A stretch of 58,305 nt of DNA from a virus. The position numbers were made by a program, and so were the translations under genes. The notes beneath the pieces were generated by a model. It made no database searches. It saw only the letters and a program-made list of their open reading frames with translations, and had not been told where the DNA came from. The stretch is taken from positions 1-58,305 of the IMG/VR virus record IMGVR_UViG_3300025597_000015. One strand, 5' to 3'. This document shows, one piece after another, positions 26,306 through 58,305 of the stretch (position 1 is the stretch's first letter; each line of letters begins with the position of its first letter).

Positions 26306-26538
26306 TATACCCACTCAATATTGTTTCGAGATTCGATTACATCAATGCCTTGTGTTTTAATATAATTAATAAAATATTCCATATGTTCTACAGTTAACTT
26401 CTTTAGATCATATTTATATTTAAATTCATCAACCATATTCTTAACTTTAGATTTTGATGCTTTAATCTCAATTGCATAAATGGGAATATTATTTTGTGTA
26501 AAAATAAATACTTCAAAGTCCTGTGTTTTCTTTGCCAT
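26305..26538 (-). CDS. hypothetical protein
   Basis: TAATG overlaps at both ends. Confidence 0.5.
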   Translation of the reverse strand: MAKKTQDFEVFIFTQNNIPIYAIEIKASKSKVKNMVDEFKYKYDLKKLTVEHMEYFINYIKTQGIDVIESRNNIEWV

Positions 26539-26834
26539 TAACCCCACCTTTCATCATGTTTATTTTCTTCAGCCCATTCATAATGTATAATTCTGTGACA
26601 ATTTGCACAAACCACAACGGTTTTCTTTATTTCTTCTGAAACGCTTTTAATTGAATACCTATTGTGAACGGCATGAAATATTGAAAATTTCTTTTCTTCT
26701 GGATTTTTATGATGAAATTCCAGACATCGGGGATCATTACATCCACATCGAATACATGAATGATCTATTTTATATTGTTCTATATAATCTTTCAATTCTT
26801 GTCTTTTCTGTTTTGCATATTTGGCTCTATCCAC
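26538..26834 (-). CDS. HNH endonuclease
   Basis: CIRCG...LEFHHKNP...CANCHRIIH. Confidence 0.75.
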   Translation of the reverse strand: MDRAKYAKQKRQELKDYIEQYKIDHSCIRCGCNDPRCLEFHHKNPEEKKFSIFHAVHNRYSIKSVSEEIKKTVVVCANCHRIIHYEWAEENKHDERWG

Positions 26835-39164: not shown

Positions 39165-39237
39165 AGTCATTGATGGGGATTGAACCCATTAACTCCTGCT
39201 TACAAGGCAGGCGCAGTTCCATTACTGCTCCAATGAC
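39165..39237 (-). tRNA. tRNA-Thr (anticodon UGU)
   Basis: Hand-folded canonical 73-nt cloverleaf. Acceptor GTCATTG/CAATGAC, D loop TAATGGAA, anticodon loop CTTGTAA, T loop TTCAATC. Confidence 0.85.
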
Positions 39238-39246
39238 AATATATGA

Positions 39247-39339
39247 TTCTCGCATATATTACCTGTGCATAGGCAATATATTGTTGATAATAATACACTA
39301 TTATCTCCTGCGGATATTACTACAGACTCGCAACGAGAA
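39247..39339 (-). ncRNA. 93-nt spacer element closed by a 7-bp helix
   Basis: UUCUCGU pairs with GCGAGAA. The helix includes a U.G pair that is valid only on the minus strand. Internal hairpin GATAAT/ATTATC. Does not fit a cloverleaf. Confidence 0.3.
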
Positions 39340-39340
39340 A

Positions 39341-39413
39341 TACGCGAGAAAGGACTTGCACCTTAATTCTTTCCGTTATAAGCAGAATGCACTACTATAT
39401 ATGCTACTCGCGC
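39341..39413 (-). tRNA. tRNA-Ile (anticodon UAU), non-canonical elbow
   Basis: 73 nt with canonical arm lengths. Acceptor GCGCGAG/CTCGCGT, anticodon loop CTTATAA. The T loop is TGCAAGT (G at position 55) and the D loop ATATAGTA lacks GG. Confidence 0.75.
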
Positions 39414-39437
39414 AAAATACATATATATGACTTTTTT

Positions 39438-39512
39438 AATAATGGTACAGATTTGAACTGTACTCCCTGCTGATGCAGGTGTGCTAACCAAATTACACCA
39501 GTAATCCATTAC
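39438..39512 (-). tRNA. aberrant tRNA-like gene or pseudo-tRNA
   Basis: Good acceptor (GTAATGG/CCATTAT), D arm (GTGT-AATTTGGTTA-GCAC) and T arm (TACAG-TTCAAAT-CTGTA). The anticodon arm CCTGC-ATCA-GCAGG has only a 4-nt loop, and 5 extra nt follow the 5' acceptor strand. Confidence 0.45.
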
Positions 39513-39559
39513 CGATTAGGTAGAATTTATCTAGAAAATTCATTAAAGTCTAAACCTGA

Positions 39560-39643
39560 TGCGTGAAACAGGCATTGCACCTGTGAACTCCTACGAGAAT
39601 GCATCTTAAGTGCATCGGGTTTGTCTATCTTCCCTATTCACGC
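39560..39643 (-). tRNA. tRNA-Leu (anticodon UAA), class II, non-canonical elbow
   Basis: 84 nt. Acceptor GCGTGAA/TTCACGC, anticodon loop CTTAAGA, long variable arm. The T loop is TGCAATG (G55) and the D loop AAGATAGACAAA lacks GG. Confidence 0.8.
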
Positions 39644-43689: not shown

Positions 43690-43827
43690 TCACCAAAATT
43701 TATTTTTAATTGCATTATCTTCATCGTGCTTCTTTACATTCTCATCTTCTTCTGGTTCTGGTTTAAACATACACTTCTCCTTTGTAGTATTGCATCTGAT
43801 TTTTTCAGCACATTGACTACATTTCAT
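43690..43827 (-). CDS. small Cys-rich protein (45 aa)
   Basis: ATGA overlap with the upstream stop. Confidence 0.4.
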   Translation of the reverse strand: MKCSQCAEKIRCNTTKEKCMFKPEPEEDENVKKHDEDNAIKNKFW

Positions 43828-44024
43828 GTTATCAATTCCATTAATTCACATGCACATAAATATACTTCATAATATCCATACGCATGCCCCTGTTCCCACG
43901 CGATTCTCATAAGAACATCTGCTTTTGGATTATTCTCTATTCCCAAATCTTTCTTAACGATTTCAAAAAAGTCAGGAATTTCACCTTTTTCATTTTTCAT
44001 ATCTTCCATTTCTTTATAATCCAT
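43824..44024 (-). CDS. hypothetical protein
   Basis: 66 aa, AGGTG SD. Confidence 0.55.
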   Translation of the reverse strand: MDYKEMEDMKNEKGEIPDFFEIVKKDLGIENNPKADVLMRIAWEQGHAYGYYEVYLCACELMELIT

Positions 44025-44055
44025 ATTTTACACCTATAAATGTTATTTTTATTAT

Positions 44056-44071
44056 CAAAAGAGCATTTTAA
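44056..44071 (-). promoter_or_regulatory. 16-mer TTAAAATGCTCTTTTG, second copy
   Basis: Exact reverse complement of 452..467; lies 32 nt upstream of the ATG at 44024. Confidence 0.45.
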
Positions 44072-44124
44072 AGAAACATCACATCAATTATGAACACTTG
44101 TGCATATTTTTCATGCATTGCTTC

Positions 44125-44136
44125 TATTAGAAACAA
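44125..44136 (-). promoter_or_regulatory. TTGTTTCTAATA motif, copy 2
   Basis: Exact 12-mer in an intergenic region, co-oriented with the downstream genes. Confidence 0.45.
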
Positions 44137-44166
44137 ATAATATTGTTTGGGGCATTAGAATTGATT

Positions 44167-44340
44167 TTAATCAATAGTTCTAATTAAATTTTCACTACCT
44201 TTTGTAGTTTCTTTAATTTCGGATATTTCAATATAAGTACCATCATAAACATTATCAAGATAAGTATCTAATGCTTCTTCGACATTTGCCGAACAGAATT
44301 TCTTATCTACATCCAAAATAATTTCAAATTTTCTAATCAT
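44167..44340 (-). CDS. small hypothetical protein (57 aa)
   Basis: Overlaps the upstream stop by 8 nt. Confidence 0.4.
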   Translation of the reverse strand: MIRKFEIILDVDKKFCSANVEEALDTYLDNVYDGTYIEISEIKETTKGSENLIRTID

Positions 44341-44644
44341 TATTCTTCTCCATAAACTCCTTTACTGTATATCTTTTCTTTTCTACAATTTCATATTCAA
44401 TAATAATAGAATCTTCGATCTTATCTTTATCTAAAATAAAACGATGTAAAGAATAATCATAATGTTCTAAAGTTTCAATATATCTTTTTAATTCTTTTTC
44501 TCTTTTCCATATTTTTCCAAATTCTGAAGTAAAAAATATTACTCCATTATTAACATAATTATTTGCTTTATCAGTATAATATTTTGAGTGTTCAGGAGTT
44601 TTACCATTTGAAAATTTACCATTTGGAAACAAAAGTTTAAACAT
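44333..44644 (-). CDS. hypothetical protein
   Basis: 103-aa ORF abutting the RNA ligase gene. Confidence 0.55.
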   Translation of the reverse strand: MFKLLFPNGKFSNGKTPEHSKYYTDKANNYVNNGVIFFTSEFGKIWKREKELKRYIETLEHYDYSLHRFILDKDKIEDSIIIEYEIVEKKRYTVKEFMEKNND

Positions 44645-45948
44645 TATGATTCTTCCTCCGTATCTTTTGCACCTGATAATTTGATTATATCTTCAAGAAC
44701 TTTAAACTCAAAACTCTTAAACTTCCACGCTTCCCATTTGGAGGAATTAATGCGAACCACAACGCCCTCTCGAATGTGCTTATCGCACAGTGTTGATGCC
44801 CCTTGCGCATACCCCGTTCCTTTTTCATTTTCAAGAAGATTGATTAGTTTTTCTGAATCTTCATCATATACGATTACTGTAAGAAGTGGGACAGTTTTTA
44901 CATCAAGTTCTCTGCATCGTGATCTAATTTCTTGCCAAGTATAATCTTTAACCCAACCATCAGCATCGGTGTGTGTGATACGATAAACATAAACTTCACT
45001 TGTGCCTTCTGGCTGATTATAAGAAAACACAGTCTCTTTACCATATTGTTTTACAAACTCTTTATCTTCAAGTTTACGATTATCACAGCGATTCATAATC
45101 GGCTTTGTATCTGTGCTCCAACCAACAATCTCATAATAAACCGTCTCTCCTTCATGGAGTTTTCCAACAAACAGATTGTGTGCAGGAACACGATAATTCT
45201 TGTCTGCTTTATCAAATCCGCCACCATACGAATCCATATCGGCAATTGTTACACGGCGGGTTCCAGAGACATATTTATATCCAATTGGTTTAGGTTCAAT
45301 AATTGTGCGTTTAAAGAGCGAATTGATAATTCTTCCATACCAAGGAAGTTGTGTGACAAGTGTATTAGAAGTTCTGCCAGAAGTCCCGTGCAGTTTTTCA
45401 GTAATATAAAGACATGCTCCTTTTGGAATTTTATCAAGATTATAAACAAGTTGTTCGGTATCTTTGTGTTCGGCAAACTGTGGATATTTGATTCTTACAA
45501 CCTTATATGGTTTGGGGTTTGAGGACTTTTCAACAGTATTTGTATATTTTTTACAAATTTCATGACCATTAATTTCAGTAAATTTGAGTCCTTCTATAAG
45601 AGTATTATAATCTACTCCTGTATAATAAAGATATGAAAGAGGACAAAAGAAACCATCTGAACGTTCTTTCCTGAATTTCTGCGTCCTGACTTTACCATTC
45701 TCGCTAAAGAATCCGCCTTTACGTTCTTTTGTAACTTCATCAATATAACTTAATTGATTGTTTGCTTTTAGAAATTCGATTGAAATTCTACCATCACTTG
45801 GGAAATAAATTCCTAGTTCGCCTTCTTTAGTATCAAGTCCTACCACAACTTGATTATTAAAACATTCTCCAAGAAGGAGCCTGTCTGCATTCGGATGTTT
45901 CCTTACATTAACAATTCTCGTAATATATGCGTAATAAGTCATTAACAT
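44644..45948 (-). CDS. tRNA-binding (OB) domain fused to an Rnl2-like RNA ligase
   Basis: The N-terminus RKHPNADRLLLGE...VVVGL is the hallmark of Trbp111/CsaA-type tRNA-binding domains. Ligase motifs: I TEKLHGTS, III VYYEIVG, IV REGVVVR, V AWKFKS. Confidence 0.7.
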   Translation of the reverse strand: MLMTYYAYITRIVNVRKHPNADRLLLGECFNNQVVVGLDTKEGELGIYFPSDGRISIEFLKANNQLSYIDEVTKERKGGFFSENGKVRTQKFRKERSDGFFCPLSYLYYTGVDYNTLIEGLKFTEINGHEICKKYTNTVEKSSNPKPYKVVRIKYPQFAEHKDTEQLVYNLDKIPKGACLYITEKLHGTSGRTSNTLVTQLPWYGRIINSLFKRTIIEPKPIGYKYVSGTRRVTIADMDSYGGGFDKADKNYRVPAHNLFVGKLHEGETVYYEIVGWSTDTKPIMNRCDNRKLEDKEFVKQYGKETVFSYNQPEGTSEVYVYRITHTDADGWVKDYTWQEIRSRCRELDVKTVPLLTVIVYDEDSEKLINLLENEKGTGYAQGASTLCDKHIREGVVVRINSSKWEAWKFKSFEFKVLEDIIKLSGAKDTEEES

Positions 45949-46247
45949 TCCTCAATCATTCTTTTCCAATCTTTACTTTTTTTCATTTCTTTTATAAGTG
46001 TTTTGACAATAATATCTGATGTTCCACATGATATTTTTTCATAAAAAAATTTATAAATTAATTTACCAACTTCTTCAGAAGGAATATTATTAACTAAAAG
46101 TCCCAACTGTGAAATGATTATATCTTTTTCTGTATCATTTATTGCAATAGTACATTCATTTAAAAAACCACATTTATCTCTATCATATTTTATATCACAC
46201 TTTTTACTATCTTTACAAAAATTGCAGTAGTGATTAAAACATGCCAT
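45942..46247 (-). CDS. Cys-rich small protein
   Basis: CFNHYCNFCKDSKKC...C; adjacent to the paralogue array. Confidence 0.55.
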   Translation of the reverse strand: MACFNHYCNFCKDSKKCDIKYDRDKCGFLNECTIAINDTEKDIIISQLGLLVNNIPSEEVGKLIYKFFYEKISCGTSDIIVKTLIKEMKKSKDWKRMIEEC

Positions 46248-46251
46248 AATA

Positions 46252-46587
46252 TCACATCTTATTTTTTAAATAACTAACAATATTATATAAACAATTAAAA
46301 CCATTAATTGAATTTTTCATATGTATGCAATTTTCACAATCATTTACTGGACAAACAAAATCAGTTATATCAAAAATAGCATTTATAAACTCTTTAGGAG
46401 AATATTCTATTATATTATTTTCTAAAATGCTCTTAATATTAAACTCATTTCTAATATATATATAAAAACAAAATGTATAAGAGTTACTTATGAAGCATGG
46501 ACATTTTTCACAACTCACTGATGGACATCGAAGTTCGATACAAGAATATAATGCTTCTATTTGTTCAGTAACTTCTTGATTTAACAT
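46252..46587 (-). CDS. Cys-rich paralogue family, member A2
   Basis: IEALYSCIELRCPSVSCEKCPC ... SPKEFINAI. Confidence 0.6.
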   Translation of the reverse strand: MLNQEVTEQIEALYSCIELRCPSVSCEKCPCFISNSYTFCFYIYIRNEFNIKSILENNIIEYSPKEFINAIFDITDFVCPVNDCENCIHMKNSINGFNCLYNIVSYLKNKM

Positions 46588-46591
46588 TGTA

Positions 46592-46903
46592 TCACATCGG
46601 ATAATTTTTTAAAGTATCGACAACTTTTTTTAAAATAATACCATTATAATCATATTGGTTTACCTGTTTCGTTATTTCTTTCACTGCTTCCACAAATTCT
46701 TCTGGAGAATAATTAACACATCCGATAGTGTTTGTTTTCATAATATTAAATTGAAAACATATATATAAATATAAACAATGATGTTTTTCATCTGTGGAAT
46801 AACAAGGACACTTTGTGCATGGTTCAGAAAAGTGTATTCCACAATCAAAATTCATTGTGGAATATAATAATTTTATATATTCATAAACTTCGTTATTGCT
46901 CAT
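46592..46903 (-). CDS. Cys-rich paralogue family, member A3
   Basis: IKLLYSTMNFDCGIHFSEPCTKCPC ... SPEEFVEAV. Confidence 0.6.
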   Translation of the reverse strand: MSNNEVYEYIKLLYSTMNFDCGIHFSEPCTKCPCYSTDEKHHCLYLYICFQFNIMKTNTIGCVNYSPEEFVEAVKEITKQVNQYDYNGIILKKVVDTLKNYPM

Positions 46904-46904
46904 G

Positions 46905-47234
46905 TTATTCCCTCATTAATGTAAAAAAACATGGAGAGACATTATGTTCATCGTTTTTCATATAAACACATTTTTTACACGAAGATTTAGAACAATCCAA
47001 TTCCATTAATATTTCATCTACAATTTCTATAAATTCATCAGGTGAGACAGTCAAATGATTAATATTAAGCCTAGAATTTATATCTAAATGAGACATCATT
47101 ACATATATACATCCAATTGTTTTATCATCATTTATAAAACAACATTTGCAGGATTTACATGAATAATTATTACATTGTGGTCTAACACAAGAAAGAAGAA
47201 TACTAAATTGTTCTAATATTTCTTCGCCAATCAT
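46905..47234 (-). CDS. Cys-rich paralogue family, member A4
   Basis: FSILLSCVRPQCNNYSCKSCKCC ... SPDEFIEIV. Confidence 0.6.
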   Translation of the reverse strand: MIGEEILEQFSILLSCVRPQCNNYSCKSCKCCFINDDKTIGCIYVMMSHLDINSRLNINHLTVSPDEFIEIVDEILMELDCSKSSCKKCVYMKNDEHNVSPCFFTLMRE

Positions 47235-47301
47235 AATTAATCCTTTGTATTTTTTTAAGATTTAAAGTAGAACTAATAAACTAAAATTTTAAAAAAAAAT
47301 A

Positions 47302-47505
47302 TTATGACTTCCTAAACGTTGCACCACTATATAGAATAATAATAAATGCTGTTACAAATAACTGTGCATAATCATTGATTTTATTCCATTCAAGTGTATT
47401 ACAAATAAATCCAGACACAACCCAAATCGTGAATCCAGCAAAAATTACATATAAAATTGCCAATATCAGTATAATTGCTGCTACAGCACCATCATAGTTT
47501 CCCAT
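47302..47505 (-). CDS. small membrane protein
   Basis: ATG at 47505 just after the upstream stop; two TM helices. Confidence 0.5.
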   Translation of the reverse strand: MGNYDGAVAAIILILAILYVIFAGFTIWVVSGFICNTLEWNKINDYAQLFVTAFIIILYSGATFRKS

Positions 47506-47506
47506 T

Positions 47507-47743
47507 CTAAGACACCTTATTAAATTTACAACCAATTACATCAACTACAGAGTAAATTGTTGCTGTTATTTGATCATCACTCATAACTCCAAAATTTGGC
47601 ATTTTATATGCATCGTCAACAAAAATCGGACATTTATTTTCTCTTACAATTTTACAATCTCTACAAGTAAATTTTTTTCTACCATAATTACACCTCGAAT
47701 TTAATAATTGGTGTATTGTTAATAATTTCAATTTCCTTTTCAA
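47507..47743 (-). CDS. Cys-rich small protein, family-related
   Basis: CNYGRKKFTCRDCKIVRENKC ... ATIYSVVDVIG; TTG start is uncertain. Confidence 0.45.
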   Translation of the reverse strand: MKRKLKLLTIHQLLNSRCNYGRKKFTCRDCKIVRENKCPIFVDDAYKMPNFGVMSDDQITATIYSVVDVIGCKFNKVS

Positions 47744-48008
47744 GTTTCTTTATATGAGATACAATCACATTTTTGAAATAAGTAACATTATCGGGATTAT
47801 GCGAATTAGAACCAATTTTTATCATATACATCCCTTTATTATTTGCAATTGTAATAAGTTCATTACACAGTGTCCCACGAACCAATTGCACATTAAACTT
47901 TTTCTTAATAATATAATCAGATAATGTTTTAATATTTTTAAATTCATTGCCATCAATCTGTGCATTCATATCATTCATATTCTTATAAGACATAATACTA
48001 ATTTCCAT
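47688..48008 (-). CDS. hypothetical protein
   Basis: ATG at 48008 after GGAGTG. Confidence 0.5.
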   Translation of the reverse strand: MEISIMSYKNMNDMNAQIDGNEFKNIKTLSDYIIKKKFNVQLVRGTLCNELITIANNKGMYMIKIGSNSHNPDNVTYFKNVIVSHIKKLEKEIEIINNTPIIKFEV

Positions 48009-48132
48009 ATTTTTCACTCCATTCTTTAATAACTTCCATATTCTCAATAGCCATACCGATTAAAATGTTATCTGGATATAATAAATAATTCAGATCATTT
48101 TTCATACCTATTAAATCTTCAATAGTAGCCAT
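47998..48132 (-). CDS. small hypothetical protein
   Basis: Start is uncertain (48132, 48141 or 48186). Confidence 0.35.
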   Translation of the reverse strand: MATIEDLIGMKNDLNYLLYPDNILIGMAIENMEVIKEWSEKYGN

Positions 48133-48424
48133 TTTCCTCATCAAATAGTGCGTTATAATAAGTTTTCTTCTTAATATAACTATCAACTTCAGTGATTACT
48201 TCATAAATATCAAACTCCCCATACTTTTTAAATAACTGTTCTTTAATTATATCCTCATCTGCATATTTATTTTCATAATATTTCCACTCTGAATAAAGTT
48301 TATTCTCAAAGTATGTCAGTTCTTGAATTGACATATTCATAGTGTTTATATTTATTTCCCGCTGTAAATTCTCTGTTCTTGTTTGTAGGTCTTTCTTTAT
48401 TTCCTGAATAATACTGTCGTCCAT
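48119..48424 (-). CDS. hypothetical coiled-coil protein
   Basis: 101-aa ORF. Confidence 0.5.
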   Translation of the reverse strand: MDDSIIQEIKKDLQTRTENLQREININTMNMSIQELTYFENKLYSEWKYYENKYADEDIIKEQLFKKYGEFDIYEVITEVDSYIKKKTYYNALFDEENGYY

Positions 48425-48620
48425 AGTCTTTACCTTTTTCTGTTAATTTGAAATGCACAGGTATTCCATTTATACACTTATCCGTTTCTATCATTCCCAT
48501 ATCATATAAACTTTTAATTGTATAAATATTTACCTTTTTTGTTTTTATAAACCACTTTGCACCTGTGGCAATTGTTAATTCATATAATGCCACTATCACA
48601 GAATGCTGGATAGGAGTCAT
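48306..48620 (-). CDS. winged-helix-like protein (putative)
   Basis: 104-aa ORF whose 3' part overlaps 48119..48424 by 119 nt. Confidence 0.4.
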   Translation of the reverse strand: MTPIQHSVIVALYELTIATGAKWFIKTKKVNIYTIKSLYDMGMIETDKCINGIPVHFKLTEKGKDYGRQYYSGNKERPTNKNREFTAGNKYKHYEYVNSRTDIL

Positions 48621-48635
48621 ATATATGTATTTGTT

Positions 48636-49097
48636 TTATTTACATTTATAGTTTTTGTTTAATTCAAATGCCAAATATGCACCACATTTTTCACATACAT
48701 AATCTCCATCTTTTGGTTTAAAATGACTATCATATTCAATGCCGCACTTCTCACAAATCGCTTTATATTTTGCAGAAGGATAAATATGTTCTTTAGTAAA
48801 TTTAGAAGTATATGGAACATCATCCCCGAAAAGTTTACACAATTTCTTAAAATCACGATTATGATTTTTAACCAATAAATGGCAAACCTCATGTGCAACT
48901 AGACATTCTATCACCCGCTTGTTATTTTTATTAGATTCAATAAATTGCTCTGAAAATTTAATATATTCATTATGTATATCACATTTACCATAAACATCGA
49001 TTGATCTAAACCATCCTACTGATGGATAGACTTTTATTCCCAGTTTATCACAATTTTGTATAACAAGTTTCCGAATATAAGTTTTTATTTTTCGCAT
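48636..49097 (-). CDS. SprT-like zinc metalloprotease with C-terminal zinc ribbon
   Basis: VAHEVCHLL (HExxH); CEKCG...CEKCG. Confidence 0.65.
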   Translation of the reverse strand: MRKIKTYIRKLVIQNCDKLGIKVYPSVGWFRSIDVYGKCDIHNEYIKFSEQFIESNKNNKRVIECLVAHEVCHLLVKNHNRDFKKLCKLFGDDVPYTSKFTKEHIYPSAKYKAICEKCGIEYDSHFKPKDGDYVCEKCGAYLAFELNKNYKCK

Positions 49098-49099
49098 AT

Positions 49100-49360
49100 T
49101 TATATTTCCTTTTGTAATATTTTCTGAATTTCTATATCTTTAATAGAATTTATTATAGAATATGCATATTCTAATTCTTGTGGAGTAAAAGAAAGTCCAT
49201 ATATACCATCATCGAATTTATATTTTTTTCTTATTTTTATTCTAATACACTGAAATCCATATTTTCTACATGGACATTTTTTAATACAAAAATCAGTTCC
49301 TCCTTCAGAACAAATATCTTTTGTTAAAATCTTTAATATCTCTAATTCTTCATGCTTCAT
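49100..49360 (-). CDS. Cys-rich paralogue family, member B1
   Basis: LEILKILTKDICSEGGTDFCIKKCPC ... ELEYAYSIINSI. Confidence 0.6.
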   Translation of the reverse strand: MKHEELEILKILTKDICSEGGTDFCIKKCPCRKYGFQCIRIKIRKKYKFDDGIYGLSFTPQELEYAYSIINSIKDIEIQKILQKEI

Positions 49361-49634
49361 TTTTCCACATTCCGTTTTTTAAGAAATATTGTAAATCTTC
49401 ATCATTTATTGAATTTATTAATGCATATATATAGTCAATACATTCTTTATCTCCAATACTATTTGGTTTTTGAGCATAGTAATCTCCTGTTATTTTATAA
49501 CGTATGTGCATTCTTTTACATCGAACATTATTTATTTCAAAATGAAATTTACAATCTTCACAAAATTTATCGCCACAGTCACATGGTTTTAATACTATCT
49601 CCTTTAAAATTTCGGTTATTTCTGAAGAAAACAT
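49350..49634 (-). CDS. Cys-rich paralogue family, member B2
   Basis: ITEILKEIVLKPCDCGDKFCEDC ... CIDYIYALINSI. Confidence 0.6.
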   Translation of the reverse strand: MFSSEITEILKEIVLKPCDCGDKFCEDCKFHFEINNVRCKRMHIRYKITGDYYAQKPNSIGDKECIDYIYALINSINDEDLQYFLKNGMWKNEA

Positions 49635-49813
49635 TATTTTCCTCCTAATATCTTTTTTATTATTGGATGATCGATTGAGTTTAAAATAGAATAAATATAT
49701 TTAGAATCTTCAGAATCTTCAATTGTTACATTACCATATTCACAAATATTAAACTTTACTCTTATTAAAACAGGAATACAATATGATGTTTCTTTTAAAT
49801 CAGTTTCTATCAT
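49634..49813 (-). CDS. Cys-rich paralogue family, member B3 (N-terminally degenerate)
   Basis: ATG at 49813 after GGGTGA; keeps the SKYIYSILNSI tail but has lost most of the Cys motif. Confidence 0.45.
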   Translation of the reverse strand: MIETDLKETSYCIPVLIRVKFNICEYGNVTIEDSEDSKYIYSILNSIDHPIIKKILGGK

Positions 49814-50102
49814 ATCGCGATTCACCCAATATATCATTTATAATTTTATCATTTAAAGAATGCAATACACTATAAACATAATCAGATTTTTCTTTGGTAA
49901 TTGTATGAATATCGCTTATTTTATAAGATTCACCATTTTCAACCAATAAAATTACAAGTTTACGTCTTAAATTAACAATATTACATCGTTCTCCAATAAT
50001 ATTTGAATGTCTTGAAAATTTACATTCACAACAGTCAAAATCTTTTCTGTCACAAAAGAACAATAAATCCCTTAAAATATAGTTATAAAGTTCCATTTTC
50101 AT
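49800..50102 (-). CDS. Cys-rich paralogue family, member B4
   Basis: LYNYILRDLLFFCDRKDFDCCEC ... SDYVYSVLHSL. Confidence 0.6.
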   Translation of the reverse strand: MKMELYNYILRDLLFFCDRKDFDCCECKFSRHSNIIGERCNIVNLRRKLVILLVENGESYKISDIHTITKEKSDYVYSVLHSLNDKIINDILGESRYDRN

Positions 50103-50338
50103 GGCTCAACTTCCTTTAATAATCCAGCAGAATTTGCTATTGAATAAACATATTCCAATTCTTCTTTTGATTGTATTTTAATACCATGATTATAATAGTC
50201 TCTATATTTATCTCTTAATTTTTGTTTAAGACAATCTCCCTTTCTATAAAATAAACATTTCGGTCTACATTCAAAATTAAACTGGCAAGCAGATATACAA
50301 ATTCTAATAATTTCAATCTGTTGTAGTGTTGGTGTCAT
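50099..50338 (-). CDS. Cys-rich paralogue family, member B5
   Basis: IEIIRICISACQFNFECRPKC ... ELEYVYSIANSA. Confidence 0.6.
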   Translation of the reverse strand: MTPTLQQIEIIRICISACQFNFECRPKCLFYRKGDCLKQKLRDKYRDYYNHGIKIQSKEELEYVYSIANSAGLLKEVEP

Positions 50339-51146
50339 TATTCCACTTCTTTACTTTTTTTATATATGTGATTGGTTCACAATAACTAATTGTGTTTAAT
50401 GACGGAAAAATAAAAGACTTTCTATATAATTTATAAAGAACTTTATCATTTACATCTGTTGTTCTTCCATATCCATAACACCACTCATTACAAACAGGAA
50501 GTGTTTCAAGGATACGAAACATAAACCGCCGATTCATTGATGGGTGGATAAGCGGAAATGCGAGTCTCTTAATAGAAAGTGGTTCTGAACTTTCTTTTAC
50601 TTTCGTCAGGAAAAACACACTTTCGCCACTCTCAATTCCGCATCGTGCTACATATAGGTTACATCTATATCCAGCCGATTCAAGTTGTGAAATATAGTTT
50701 AGAACAACAATTCCACGATTGATAATATCTTCAGTGCTTGTTCCACCATTAACACCAATATTAACAATAATATCTACAATTTTAAACTTTTTAGGATGAA
50801 ATTCTGCATTAACCATTGTGTCCGGGCGTCCAATAATAACATGCGGCACGCACGGCGCAAAACCCTCTACATCTGTTTTTGGAACATAACGTTTATTTTG
50901 AATTTCTTCATCTACTTCGCGATCTTTAAGGTTATCTGTTAATTTTTTATAGCCTTCTTCCCAACCACGTGATATGAGTTCTTCTGCTTCTTCAAAAGAC
51001 TTTGTATGAGTGAAACTATAATCATTTTCTTTTGAAGAACGTGCATAAAAGGAAGGATGGTTTGGGGTATTTTTACAATATTTGGTCATATCGCTGATCG
51101 AATCAAACACACAAAAGAAATTACGTCCTTCAATCCATTTTTTCAT
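50313..51146 (-). CDS. hypothetical protein, likely partner of the AAA+ ATPase
   Basis: 277-aa ORF two small genes downstream of the ATPase. Any vWA/CobT-like relationship is unverified. Confidence 0.5.
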   Translation of the reverse strand: MKKWIEGRNFFCVFDSISDMTKYCKNTPNHPSFYARSSKENDYSFTHTKSFEEAEELISRGWEEGYKKLTDNLKDREVDEEIQNKRYVPKTDVEGFAPCVPHVIIGRPDTMVNAEFHPKKFKIVDIIVNIGVNGGTSTEDIINRGIVVLNYISQLESAGYRCNLYVARCGIESGESVFFLTKVKESSEPLSIKRLAFPLIHPSMNRRFMFRILETLPVCNEWCYGYGRTTDVNDKVLYKLYRKSFIFPSLNTISYCEPITYIKKVKKWNNDTNTTTD

Positions 51147-51331
51147 AACAATTCCTCTTTAGTAAAATAATCAAACATGTTTATAGAGTTAACATCAATG
51201 CCACGTTCTTCAGAGATAATTTTCATTGTTTTTCCATCTGATATAAAATTAACTTGTTGTGTTGGACTTTCTAAAACTCTTTTAAGAATTGAATCAACAT
51301 CGTTTATATCAAATGTTTCCACAAAAATCAC
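51143..51331 (-). CDS. hypothetical protein
   Basis: 62-aa ORF. Confidence 0.5.
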   Translation of the reverse strand: MIFVETFDINDVDSILKRVLESPTQQVNFISDGKTMKIISEERGIDVNSINMFDYFTKEELL

Positions 51332-51584
51332 TCAATTCGATTTTGTTAACTTCTTTGCACTGTGTTTCAAATTCATATTCACAAATAACACAATTTGGAT
51401 AATATCTTCCAACCATGTTAACATATTTTTTTAATTCATAGTTATAACTTCTCTCAAACATATGAAGATGATTTTTCAAATGTCCAATAGTATTCCATGT
51501 TTTTCCAACTTTAGACCATTTTGGTGGATCTCCACCGCGTGAATATAATCCAGTTTCTGGATTAAAAATTTTATAAATCTTCAT
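51309..51584 (-). CDS. hypothetical protein
   Basis: 91-aa ORF. Confidence 0.55.
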   Translation of the reverse strand: MKIYKIFNPETGLYSRGGDPPKWSKVGKTWNTIGHLKNHLHMFERSYNYELKKYVNMVGRYYPNCVICEYEFETQCKEVNKIELSDFCGNI

Positions 51585-54777: not shown

Positions 54778-55022
54778 CTTACAATAATTTGATACATATT
54801 ATTATCAATCATAGCATAAATTAACCATTTTTTGCCTCTACACACTCTATAAAAGAATGGTGCTATAGATGGATCATCAAAATCAAACCATTGAGTTGTA
54901 ATTTCTTTTAAAGTATATCGTTTAAATGGTTCGTCCTCATCTGTTATTATAAAATCTATTAGTTTTGTATTTTTATACAAATTATATTTCATTTCAATCA
55001 TCCTCTGAATGAACAAATTCAT
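54774..55022 (-). CDS. hypothetical protein
   Basis: 82-aa ORF. Confidence 0.55.
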   Translation of the reverse strand: MNLFIQRMIEMKYNLYKNTKLIDFIITDEDEPFKRYTLKEITTQWFDFDDPSIAPFFYRVCRGKKWLIYAMIDNNMYQIIVR

Positions 55023-55257
55023 GACATTCTTTACATAATGGAATTGTTCGCTGTAGTTCTCTTAAAACAGCATTCCACGAAAATGTTTTTCTTAAAAAGT
55101 CATGCATACTTAAACCATCCTCAATTCTATGAAATGTTATTGGTGAATCGTTAGAATTATAACGACCACATATAACACAATATTGTTTACATTTATATTC
55201 TTTATATTTTTCACGAATCTTTATTCTTTTTTCTTTTTTCAACATTTTACTTCTCAC
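54994..55257 (-). CDS. HNH endonuclease (small)
   Basis: CVICG...TFHRIEDG...CKECHEFVH. Confidence 0.65.
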   Translation of the reverse strand: MRSKMLKKEKRIKIREKYKEYKCKQYCVICGRYNSNDSPITFHRIEDGLSMHDFLRKTFSWNAVLRELQRTIPLCKECHEFVHSEDD

Positions 55258-55415
55258 ATTAATAAAATTTTTCCATCTTCTTTGTTAATCATTTGTCTTA
55301 ATTCACACATTTTACCTTTAACAAATGGACATTTTTCGCAGTCAATTCCCATTTGAAAAAATTTACAGTTTCCATTTTTTGAAAAAGCCTTTTTAAGAAT
55401 TTTAATGTCTAACAT
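55254..55415 (-). CDS. Cys-rich small protein (53 aa), family-related
   Basis: ATG at 55415 after GAGGT; ILKKAFSKNGNCKFFQMGIDCEKCPFVKGKMC resembles the N-half of the paralogue family. Confidence 0.45.
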   Translation of the reverse strand: MLDIKILKKAFSKNGNCKFFQMGIDCEKCPFVKGKMCELRQMINKEDGKILLM

Positions 55416-55806
55416 CGCATTTAACCTCATAATGAATACCATTGTCCTTACACGCACATGAATCAGAATACATAAATGGATACATTTGAGAACCGATATT
55501 AAAATCAGTCCAATTATTTTCATATGTCAAAGGCTGTCCACATTGTGTTATTTTACAATTTGGATTGATTTTAAAACACTCATCAAAAAATGCACCATAA
55601 ACATGCCAACATGCCGCATTAATATGCCTGCCCGATGGCGAAATTCGAGAACCTTTTTTACGAATATCACTGACCTTTAATGTAACGATAATTTTGTTTT
55701 TGTCAGAATCAAATCTTTTAAAAAGAATATTGTTATCAAAAAATCTGTTAGTGTTATGTAATGCTGTTGCTACATCCTGTTCAGTTAAACCTCTAATGTA
55801 AACCAT
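55402..55806 (-). CDS. hypothetical protein
   Basis: 134-aa ORF. Confidence 0.55.
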   Translation of the reverse strand: MVYIRGLTEQDVATALHNTNRFFDNNILFKRFDSDKNKIIVTLKVSDIRKKGSRISPSGRHINAACWHVYGAFFDECFKINPNCKITQCGQPLTYENNWTDFNIGSQMYPFMYSDSCACKDNGIHYEVKCDVRH

Positions 55807-56129: not shown

Positions 56130-56161
56130 TATTAGAAACAATTTGTTTATTTTAGAAACAA
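56130..56161 (-). promoter_or_regulatory. TTGTTTCTAATA motif, copy 3 (56130-56141), plus the variant TTGTTTCTAAA (56151-56161)
   Basis: Exact 12-mer and a near copy in tandem, upstream of the gene block that starts at 55963. Confidence 0.45.
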
Positions 56162-56215
56162 TGCACCAATTTTATGCATAACTATACATTTTGAAATTGA
56201 AAGTACTTTAAAATG

Positions 56216-56410
56216 CTATTTTGTATTTAAAAATACTTCTACCCAGTCGGGATCTTCGCTGATCAATTTTGCAGTTTTTTCCATTTCGGCATGAATAACC
56301 TTTAATCGTACCATTAAAACATCCTCTTCTCTTGACAATTCCCTGAAAGTTTTAATCATTAATTCAGTCTCACACATTTTAATCAATTTCCAATCTTGCA
56401 AGTTCATCAA
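56216..56410 (-). CDS. hypothetical protein
   Basis: 64-aa ORF; start is uncertain (56407 or 56377). Confidence 0.5.
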   Translation of the reverse strand: MMNLQDWKLIKMCETELMIKTFRELSREEDVLMVRLKVIHAEMEKTAKLISEDPDWVEVFLNTK

Positions 56411-58178: not shown

Positions 58179-58305
58179 ATTATATAATAATATATAGAAA
58201 AACAAGTAAACTTTAATAAAAACAAGTAAAAATAAGTAAATATGGGTATCATCAAATCAGTATTTTAAAAAAATAAAAATTAGAAATACTGATTATCGAC
58301 CTTGA
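58179..58305. repeat. exact terminal overlap, copy 2 (identical to 1..127)
   Basis: See copy 1. Confidence 0.95.

Follow-up and report, generated by a model that had tools for sequence, protein, structure and literature searches.

The window analysed here, namely the whole 58,305-nt stretch of viral DNA that makes up positions 1 to 58,305 of the IMG/VR record IMGVR_UViG_3300025597_000015, encodes eight robust members of a family of small cysteine-rich proteins, arranged on the minus strand in two tandem arrays, A1-A3 (46252-47234) and B1-B5 (49100-50338). We read these genes as paralogues of one clade-specific protein family, with metal-stabilised modules and an accessory role in the interaction with the host, and assign this reading as a whole a probability of about 0.45. 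Its structural and evolutionary part appears highly probable; the proposed role, in which host proteins would be bound or inhibited for takeover or anti-defence and different paralogues would cover different targets, is put forward tentatively. The genes listed in an earlier note on the same DNA exist at the coordinates that it gave, on the minus strand, and the similarity that it saw within each array is far beyond chance, as judged by blastp and by leave-one-out hidden Markov models (HMMs). Its count of 9-11 paralogues and its estimate that they take up 2.5-3 kb were both too high, the eight genes spanning 2.2 kb, or 3.8% of the genome. To our knowledge, a paralogue expansion of this size is unusual in a 58-kb phage.

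The duplicated four-cysteine module and its putative metal site

The full-length protein, of about 110-120 amino acids, is an internal duplication of a module of about 55 residues, in which a helix is followed by the motif C-x4-8-C-x2-C-x7-12-C and a second helix. In the two-cluster proteins, the N-terminal module is homologous to the C-terminal one, as a comparison of their profiles shows (hhalign 95%, E-value 3.3e-8). In the internal repeat of A1, EVTEQIEALYSCIELRCPSVSCEKC corresponds to PKEFINAIFDITDFVCPVNDCENC, and the module HMM matches this protein twice, with E-values of 3e-14 and 2e-12. The alignments and AlphaFold2 (AF2) modelling bear out the layout described in the earlier note, in which the N-terminal helix is followed by a Cys cluster, by one more Cys where a helix begins, and by a conserved tail. 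The tail, SP(E/D)EF in array A and (E/D)Y(I/V)YS(I/V)xNS in array B, is conserved as claimed; given the homology between the two modules, it is reread here as the first helix of module 2.

The three members of array A are of the alpha type. Both modules are intact in A1 (46252..46587, 111 amino acids; C21/C26/C29/C40 and C79/C84/C87/C99 in the ligand table, with support from blastp, HMM and AF2) and in A3 (46905..47234, 109 amino acids). In A2 (46592..46903, 103 amino acids), module 1 is intact and module 2 has kept its helices and its length, with all four of its cysteines gone. The 5′ part of A2 also contains an inverted repeat with an 11-bp stem (TATTCCACAAT ... ATTGTGGAATA) at 46835-46864. 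The idea that A2 is pseudogenised in other assemblies was rejected, as the DNA is identical there and only the start call differs.

The proteins of array B lack about 25-30 residues that comprise the second Cys cluster and retain both flanking helices. This is the organization of B1 (49100..49360, 86 amino acids), B2 (49350..49634, 94 amino acids) and B4 (49800..50102, 100 amino acids), all of the beta type with an intact module 1; B5 (50099..50338, 79 amino acids), likewise beta-type with module 1 intact, ends after the first helix of module 2. Judged from the alignments, the members of array B are derived forms that have lost the second Cys cluster. B3 (49634..49837, 67 amino acids, or 59 from a start at 49813, the form found in public gene calls) has lost the first cluster as well. 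With no intact Cys4 site it is degenerate, and the ligand table of the aligned members agrees with the observation in the earlier note that its cluster is missing, only the helices and the Cys of the fourth ligand being retained. It is still matched by the beta profile (E-value 2.6e-9, with B3 in the training set) and by the superfamily profile (2.6e-7). The reverse condition occurs in the homologue P0015, where only the first cluster is absent.

Within array A, blastp E-values are 4e-18 for A1-A3, 1e-17 for A1-A2 and 1e-7 for A2-A3, and the pairs of array B give 1e-4 to 1e-8. When one member is left out, the HMM built from the others recovers it with a P-value of 1e-17 to 1e-20 in array A and 3e-10 to 1e-12 in array B. 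From the sequences of the window alone, the link between the two arrays is merely suggestive (hhalign 27%), with each array's profile placing members of the other array high on its list of non-self matches. Once the relatives are added, the alpha and beta profiles align at hhalign 93% (E-value 3.1e-7) over 95 columns that cover both clusters. The genes within the arrays are tightly packed or overlapping, with coupled starts, and most are preceded by a Shine-Dalgarno (SD)-like sequence. In a six-frame scan of the window with the module HMM, the module was found only in these genes, and no further member was detected. A scan of this AT-rich DNA for promoters and terminators was uninformative.

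In an alignment of 24 members, the four cysteines of a module are either all present or essentially all missing, and additional cysteines such as C16 and C31 are not conserved. Since the quartets are kept or lost together, which is the strongest evidence from sequence, the four cysteines of each module very likely make up one metal site, and the assignment of the proteins to a metal-binding family in the earlier note is thus very likely right. The N-termini are acidic amphipathic helices rather than signal peptides, which points to cytoplasmic proteins, and in the cytoplasm metal binding is likelier than disulfide bonding. By default, the bound metal would be expected to be Zn(II).

The AF2 model of A1 built from 16 family sequences has a predicted local distance difference test (pLDDT) score of 84 and a predicted template modelling score of 0.77, and contains two equivalent repeats; a model from only three sequences was poor (pLDDT 62). 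In repeat 1, a helix (2-16) is predicted to lead through a loop with C21 and a turn with C26-x2-C29 into a hairpin (32-40) that ends at C40, followed by a helix (41-48). Repeat 2 is predicted to run in the same order, with a helix (64-78), C79, a turn with C84-x2-C87, a hairpin (89-99) that ends at C99, and a helix (100-110). This secondary structure agrees with the knuckle, hairpin and helix order of treble-clef and zinc-knuckle folds, but the helix would provide a single ligand. As modelled, the modules resemble Cys4 zinc-knuckle and treble-clef fingers: they have a CxxC knuckle and a beta-hairpin, the next helix would provide a ligand from its N-terminus, the domain is small and, presumably, metal-stabilised, and the ligand set is all-or-none. 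They differ from these fingers in that the ligands are arranged 1+2+1 (C-x4-8-C-x2-C-x7-12-C) and not as two CxxC pairs, that the N-terminal amphipathic helix is obligatory and two modules are fused, and that no zinc-finger family of Pfam is matched. A Foldseek search with the A1 model gave no match in the PDB (best E-value 4.6, template modelling score 0.24) or in BFVD (best E-value 2.9), all template modelling scores being below 0.3, although Foldseek is weak on very small metal-dependent domains.

None of the 24 members has a consistent match in Pfam, PHROGs, NCBIfam, PADLOC or the PDB sequence profiles, and literature searches on the family returned nothing relevant; the statement in the earlier note that the family was not recognised therefore stands. 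Three known kinds of protein were compared specifically. No member matches the WhiB-like (Wbl) family PF02467 in Pfam, and the spacing C-x4-8-C-x2-C-x7-12-C is not the C-x(14-22)-C-x2-C-x5-C of that family. The C-x2-C-x2-C-x3-C-P motif of 4Fe-4S ferredoxins is absent from the members, with no match to Pfam Fer4, and they do not have the conserved His or Asn of HNH endonucleases.

Relatives, synteny and gene turnover

When 1.84 billion representatives were searched exhaustively with HMMER and the profile of array A, six homologues from outside the window were found (E-values 2e-12 to 8e-6), which have the same layout and carry a second Cys cluster near the C-terminus. Word-indexed protein searches returned only the window's own proteins, one variant of B4 and one protein of the relative L063. 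Further loci were found with a three-sequence alignment of DUF7192, the protein encoded next to array B; a pattern search with a single DUF7192 protein returned nothing. An IMG/VR search anchored on the RNA ligase gave 56 loci, mostly from large unrelated phages, none with a family member, and a scan of GTDB genomes revealed no relative. Among 50,697 deposited phages, no DNA relative of the window was detected, the terminase is at most 25% identical to any, and tblastn with P0012 and with L064 2245-2613 found no match. The family was found only in a small clade of metagenomic phages of about 58-64 kb, at two syntenic hot spots and in 2-8 copies per genome. Besides the window, the clade comprises L063 (63.6 kb), L064 (15 kb), L062, L065, L067 (from IMG/VR, 61.6 kb), L068-L070 and the fragment L060.

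The gene order shared by the clade is AAA_5 ATPase, DUF7192, array, SprT-like protease (not in all genomes), winged-helix protein, several small genes, array and RNA ligase. In the window, the pair of MoxR-type AAA_5 ATPase and DUF7192 lies immediately upstream of the beta array. The DUF7192 gene (50313..51146, minus strand; Pfam 1e-37) is the conserved upstream anchor of this array in all relatives, and downstream of the alpha array, in the window as in L062 and L063, comes the RNA ligase gene (44644..45948, minus strand; Pfam RNA_ligase). The SprT-like protease that the earlier note placed between the arrays is indeed there, as a SprT/YgjP-like protein. DUF7192 of the window is 56-58% identical to that of L063, L064 and L067-L070, and in each of these genomes family members come next. 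Two observations that would have spoken against the note, absence or decay of the arrays in relatives and membership of a well-characterised family, were looked for; instead, the arrays are present, and variable, at the DUF7192 hot spot of every recovered relative that covers it, and the family is not a well-characterised one.

The arrays are the least conserved part of the syntenic block. Compared with L063, the flanking proteins are 35-63% identical and the alpha-type proteins 25-34%, and the beta-type proteins are invisible to BLAST. At 25-35% identity, reading frames, Cys quartets and core residues are nevertheless kept across the relatives. The genes that follow DUF7192 in L063 and L064 encode proteins of 109-122 amino acids with two Cys clusters; L063 6595-6963 is matched by both the A and the B profile of the window (1.4e-7 and 1.4e-6), and L064 1525-1893, in the beta position, bears the exact A1 motif CPSVSCEKCP. 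Copy numbers vary, with five beta and three alpha genes in the window, four and two in L063, and two beta and no alpha genes in L067, which also has no SprT gene. L064 has five intact beta genes, one alpha gene and one further beta gene split into two single-module open reading frames (ORFs), and in L070 alpha-like and beta-like genes stand together in a mixed array.

The split gene of L064 (1845-2063 and 2036-2248), a second copy of the first gene in the beta position, encodes products of 56 and 58 amino acids with one module each; it may have become a pseudogene through a frameshift, or it may show how single-module genes arise. More single-module proteins with the order helix, Cys4, helix, some of them in tandem, are encoded in or outside arrays at L067 4308-4481, 4608-4820, 7042-7344 and 7323-7601, L068 2652-2831 and L070 2929-3108. 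From its occurrence in these frames, the module seems to be in common use as a building block across this phage clade.

The closest relative is the fragment L060, with DNA that is 93-97% identical. B5 is absent from it, the deletion lying between two 15-nt near-repeats, AAGAAGTGGAATATG and AAGAATTGGAATATG, of which one is the ribosome-binding site and start of B5 and the other consists of codons of its tail; on the evidence of these repeats, B5 was lost in L060 by microhomology. A different paralogue follows B4 in L060, so that the gene has been replaced. B4 and its L060 orthologue P0006 are separated by 13.5 non-synonymous and 7.5 synonymous differences, with all cysteines kept and a ratio of non-synonymous to synonymous rates (dN/dS) of 0.38, compared with 0.07 for the adjacent DUF7192 fragment, both samples being small. 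The B4/P0006 pair is under purifying selection.

The paralogues of the window are 26-40% identical, and only traces of DNA similarity remain between them, which indicates that the duplications are old; what is fast, as far as can be read from these alignments, is divergence and gene turnover. The earlier note had spoken of a rapidly duplicating and diverging family. One duplicating, diverging family with fast gene turnover between relatives is what we find, but the reading of recent duplication is rejected, paralogue similarity at the DNA level being reduced to traces.

Borderline genes and genome setting

Judged by their profile match, by how the modules are laid out and by a syntenic position that follows DUF7192 or precedes the RNA ligase, A1-A3 and B1-B5 belong to the family and gene 45942 does not. 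The earlier note had suggested 45942, 47507 and 55254 as more diverged or truncated members. Despite a C-x4-C-x2-C start and an IPSEEV motif, 45942 is rejected (hhalign 1.3%, no orthologue in the relatives), and the other two are borderline. The product of gene 47507 (47507..47743, minus strand) is a small CxxC protein, and the relatives have conserved orthologues of it, each in a single copy. The long form of the window's protein scores E-values of 5e-4 to 4e-3 with the HMM, in conflict with the comparison of its orthologue profile with the family (hhalign 0.6%). The family-like N-terminal helix and first Cys are present only if translation starts at a weak TTG, in overlap with the upstream gene, and the orthologues begin at MxxxYTC. 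On the 5′ side of the conserved part lies a strong SD (GAGGTG) with an ATG (47685-47683) that is one base out of frame, and an A7 run (A_AAA_AAT, 47678-47671) comes next; a slip by -1 in this stretch, or an indel of 1 nt, would yield MVEK(N/K)FTCRDC, in agreement with the start of the L063 and L067 orthologues. The sequence of 47671-47697 is unchanged in the other near-identical assemblies that cover the region. Gene 55254 (55254..55415, minus strand) encodes 53 amino acids in a single-module-like order of helix, C-x8-C-x2-C-x7-C and helix, and its short form scores E-values of 0.004-0.008 (domain E-value 0.03). The 89-residue reading, up to 55523, overlaps the gene at 55402-55806, and public gene calls give 53 amino acids; 55254 is credible as a borderline candidate only in this short form.

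Two small HNH-endonuclease-like ORFs with CxxC ... CxxCH motifs, 26538-26834 and 54994-55257, give spurious weak matches to family profiles through their Cys motifs. The former reaches E-values of 1e-4 to 9e-4 with the alpha profile and has no beta match, and such matches of HNH-like ORFs are weak, unreciprocated and driven by the Cys motif. Small Cys-rich proteins are widespread in the minus-strand arm of the genome (23300-57000), many having 5-12% Cys, compared with 0-2% in the structural proteins, so that Cys richness alone is not specific to the family.

An exact direct repeat of 127 nt (1-127 = 58179-58305) is present at both ends of the window, indicating a complete phage genome of 58,178 bp that is circular or terminally redundant. 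Near-identical copies of the genome (99.98-100%) are found in three other public assemblies. The G+C content is about 32%. The first 23 kb or so carry the structural genes, on the plus strand. They are followed by a long minus-strand arm of mostly small genes, which, from this layout of small non-structural genes, is taken to be the early arm. It includes a cluster of three tRNA genes (39165-39643, minus strand; Thr-TGT, Ile-TAT and Leu-TAA).

An intergenic element of about 95 nt occurs in three copies (395-503, 44020-44138 and 56141-56235) at about 72% identity, with the blocks CAATGCA..TATG.A.AA.T.T.CAT and TTAAAATGCT.TTTTG in common. At the end of the copy at 44.1 kb stand the SD and ATG that belong to gene 43824-44024; this copy and the one at 56.1 kb are inverted and flank a 12-kb block that contains both arrays. 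The element may be a promoter or operator. Within the same block, genes 44333-44644 and 51309-51584 form another paralogous pair, both matching L063 14137-14448 (42% and 33% identity).

Candidate functions and alternative explanations

In the explanation that we favour, an ancestral protein of about 110-120 residues would have arisen by tandem duplication of the 55-residue module, which would run from an amphipathic helix through a Cys1 loop, a Cys2-x2-Cys3 knuckle and a beta-hairpin to Cys4 at the start of a second helix, and would hold one structural metal ion, Zn(II) by default. The two modules would pack as a compact pseudo-symmetric domain in the cytoplasm. At the two hot spots in the presumably early minus-strand arm, the genes would be duplicated, deleted, split and replaced, and individual modules would decay, the B proteins of the window having excised the second Cys cluster. 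The products would then be dispensable early accessory factors, in which the conserved cysteines and hydrophobic core serve as a scaffold that shows fast-changing surfaces for the binding of host proteins, and different paralogues would cover different targets or target variants. What bears on function is that the proteins are small and cytoplasmic without any enzymatic motif, on a conserved scaffold that is probably metal-stabilised, and that their genes, in the presumably early arm, are dispensable and vary in copy number among close relatives at recombination-prone hot spots between conserved anchors, with the genes open to such a test still under purifying selection. The change in copy number between related phages suggests a role in phage-host conflict. 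The arms-race role proposed in the earlier note, as host takeover, anti-defence or superinfection exclusion, may likewise be read from genomic context and evolutionary behaviour. A more far-reaching version, in which a new metal-stabilised fold acts as a diversifying binder scaffold, each paralogue of the repertoire neutralises a different host defence or takeover target, and new specificities are created as genes are duplicated, lose modules or are replaced at the two recombination hot spots, we regard as doubtful.

Known systems provide partial parallels for such a role. The hyperplastic regions of T4-like phages and anti-defence islands also hold small early genes between conserved anchors that differ among syntenic relatives; unlike those regions, the hot spots described here hold paralogues of a single family rather than unrelated ORFs, and no member matches a known anti-defence protein. 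The MGF110 genes of African swine fever virus and the gene 'accordions' of poxviruses are likewise tandem sets of small, partly Cys-rich paralogues with copy numbers that vary between strains, a pattern that has been read as host-range or immune-evasion adaptation. This is an analogy without homology, as we deal here with a 58-kb phage, old duplications and cytoplasmic rather than secretory proteins.

Several points weigh against the favoured explanation. The AF2 model was built on an alignment of only 16 sequences and was read at the level of secondary structure, so that the Cys-Cys geometry is putative, and Zn cannot be distinguished from Fe-S on the sequences. No similarity to known anti-defence, takeover or exclusion proteins was found in PHROGs, Pfam or PADLOC, libraries that are incomplete. 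The charge is inconsistent across members (isoelectric point (pI) 4.7-9.0), giving no simple signature of a DNA mimic or of a nucleic-acid-binding protein either way. The dN/dS value comes from a single pair of 94 codons, and given the old duplications, "rapid" can refer to turnover and divergence and not to recent amplification.

The proteins might instead be zinc-finger regulators that bind nucleic acids, as temporal repressors or activators of transcription or as RNA binders, with the helix after Cys4 as recognition helix and the pseudo-dimer reading symmetric sites. In the beta-type proteins, each cluster is indeed followed by a basic helix, C-x-R-x-(K/E)-I-R-x-L-L, several of these proteins have a pI of 8.4-9.0, the architecture is pseudo-symmetric and a winged-helix protein is encoded in the same block. 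However, the basic helix is missing from the alpha members, which have an acidic pI of 4.7-5.5, no DNA-binding family or fold is matched, and essential regulators would hardly range from 0-3 (alpha) and 2-6 (beta) copies or be deleted between near relatives, so that we consider regulators unlikely. Slightly less likely again are iron-sulfur clusters at the Cys4 sites, which would make the proteins small redox or O2/NO-sensing factors that dock on a host protein in an anaerobic host. Such clusters could be held by the four cysteines of each site, which are flexibly spaced, with C-x2-C and CPC motifs among them; the general Cys richness of the phage's small early proteins might suit a reducing or anaerobic lifestyle, and there is a precedent in the WhiB-like proteins, small helical Cys4 [4Fe-4S] proteins that dock onto the principal sigma factor and are encoded by phages too. 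The family shares with them the size (about 80-120 residues), the mostly helical four-Cys character, with a putative metal, and the occurrence in phages, and Wbl proteins also bind a host protein. It differs in Cys spacing, in having no Wbl turn motif, in its two sites per protein and multicopy arrays, and in its low-G+C genome, which is not that of an actinophage. Neither the ferredoxin nor the Wbl spacing is present, the predicted geometry of knuckle, hairpin and helix is typical of structural Zn sites, and the loss of single modules from genes that persist fits structural sites better than catalytic or sensing ones.

The signature of variable, accessory genes in hot spots would be the same if the proteins acted in superinfection exclusion or defence against competing phages rather than against the host. 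This is quite improbable in view of the absence of any match to PADLOC or other defence families and of enzymatic or membrane domains, with no sign of a temperate phage in the parts examined. We give very little credence to a relationship in which the proteins are clients or partners of their neighbours, being metallated or remodelled by the MoxR-type AAA_5 ATPase with DUF7192 or processed by the SprT-like protease. MoxR ATPases and adaptor proteins act in metal-centre maturation, and in each of the seven relatives with sequence at this position the beta array comes directly after DUF7192; on the other hand, the AAA_5-DUF7192 pair is widespread in Firmicutes phages, in Clostridium phage CS266P3 DUF7192 occurs without a family member in its vicinity, L067, L068 and L070 have no SprT gene between the array and the winged-helix gene, and the alpha array is located elsewhere. 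An obligate link to AAA_5-DUF7192 is rejected, since DUF7192 is widespread without the family. Least credible of all is that these are decaying duplicates or chance Cys-rich frames without function. The degenerate B3, module 2 of A2 and the split L064 gene have that appearance, but frames, Cys quartets and core residues are conserved at 25-35% identity, dN/dS is 0.38, the genes have SD sequences and coupled starts, and the module is confined to them in the six-frame scan. This conservation excludes the junk-ORF reading for the family as a whole.

The metal-stabilised accessory proteins that we favour constitute a new protein family of a familiar general kind, that of small metal-binding accessory phage proteins in hypervariable regions. 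Neither structure search nor any of the annotation libraries tried recognised the family, which is now reduced to a simple repeated unit with a well-defined putative metal site; its relatives, in which copies have been gained, lost, split and truncated, offer a natural variant series for small orphan early phage proteins. Should they turn out to be no more than accessory proteins that are specific to this clade and redundant in their role, the members would form a well-described orphan family of modest interest. If they are binders of host proteins or anti-defence factors, they would represent a new scaffold and a compact example of how a repertoire evolves in a phage.

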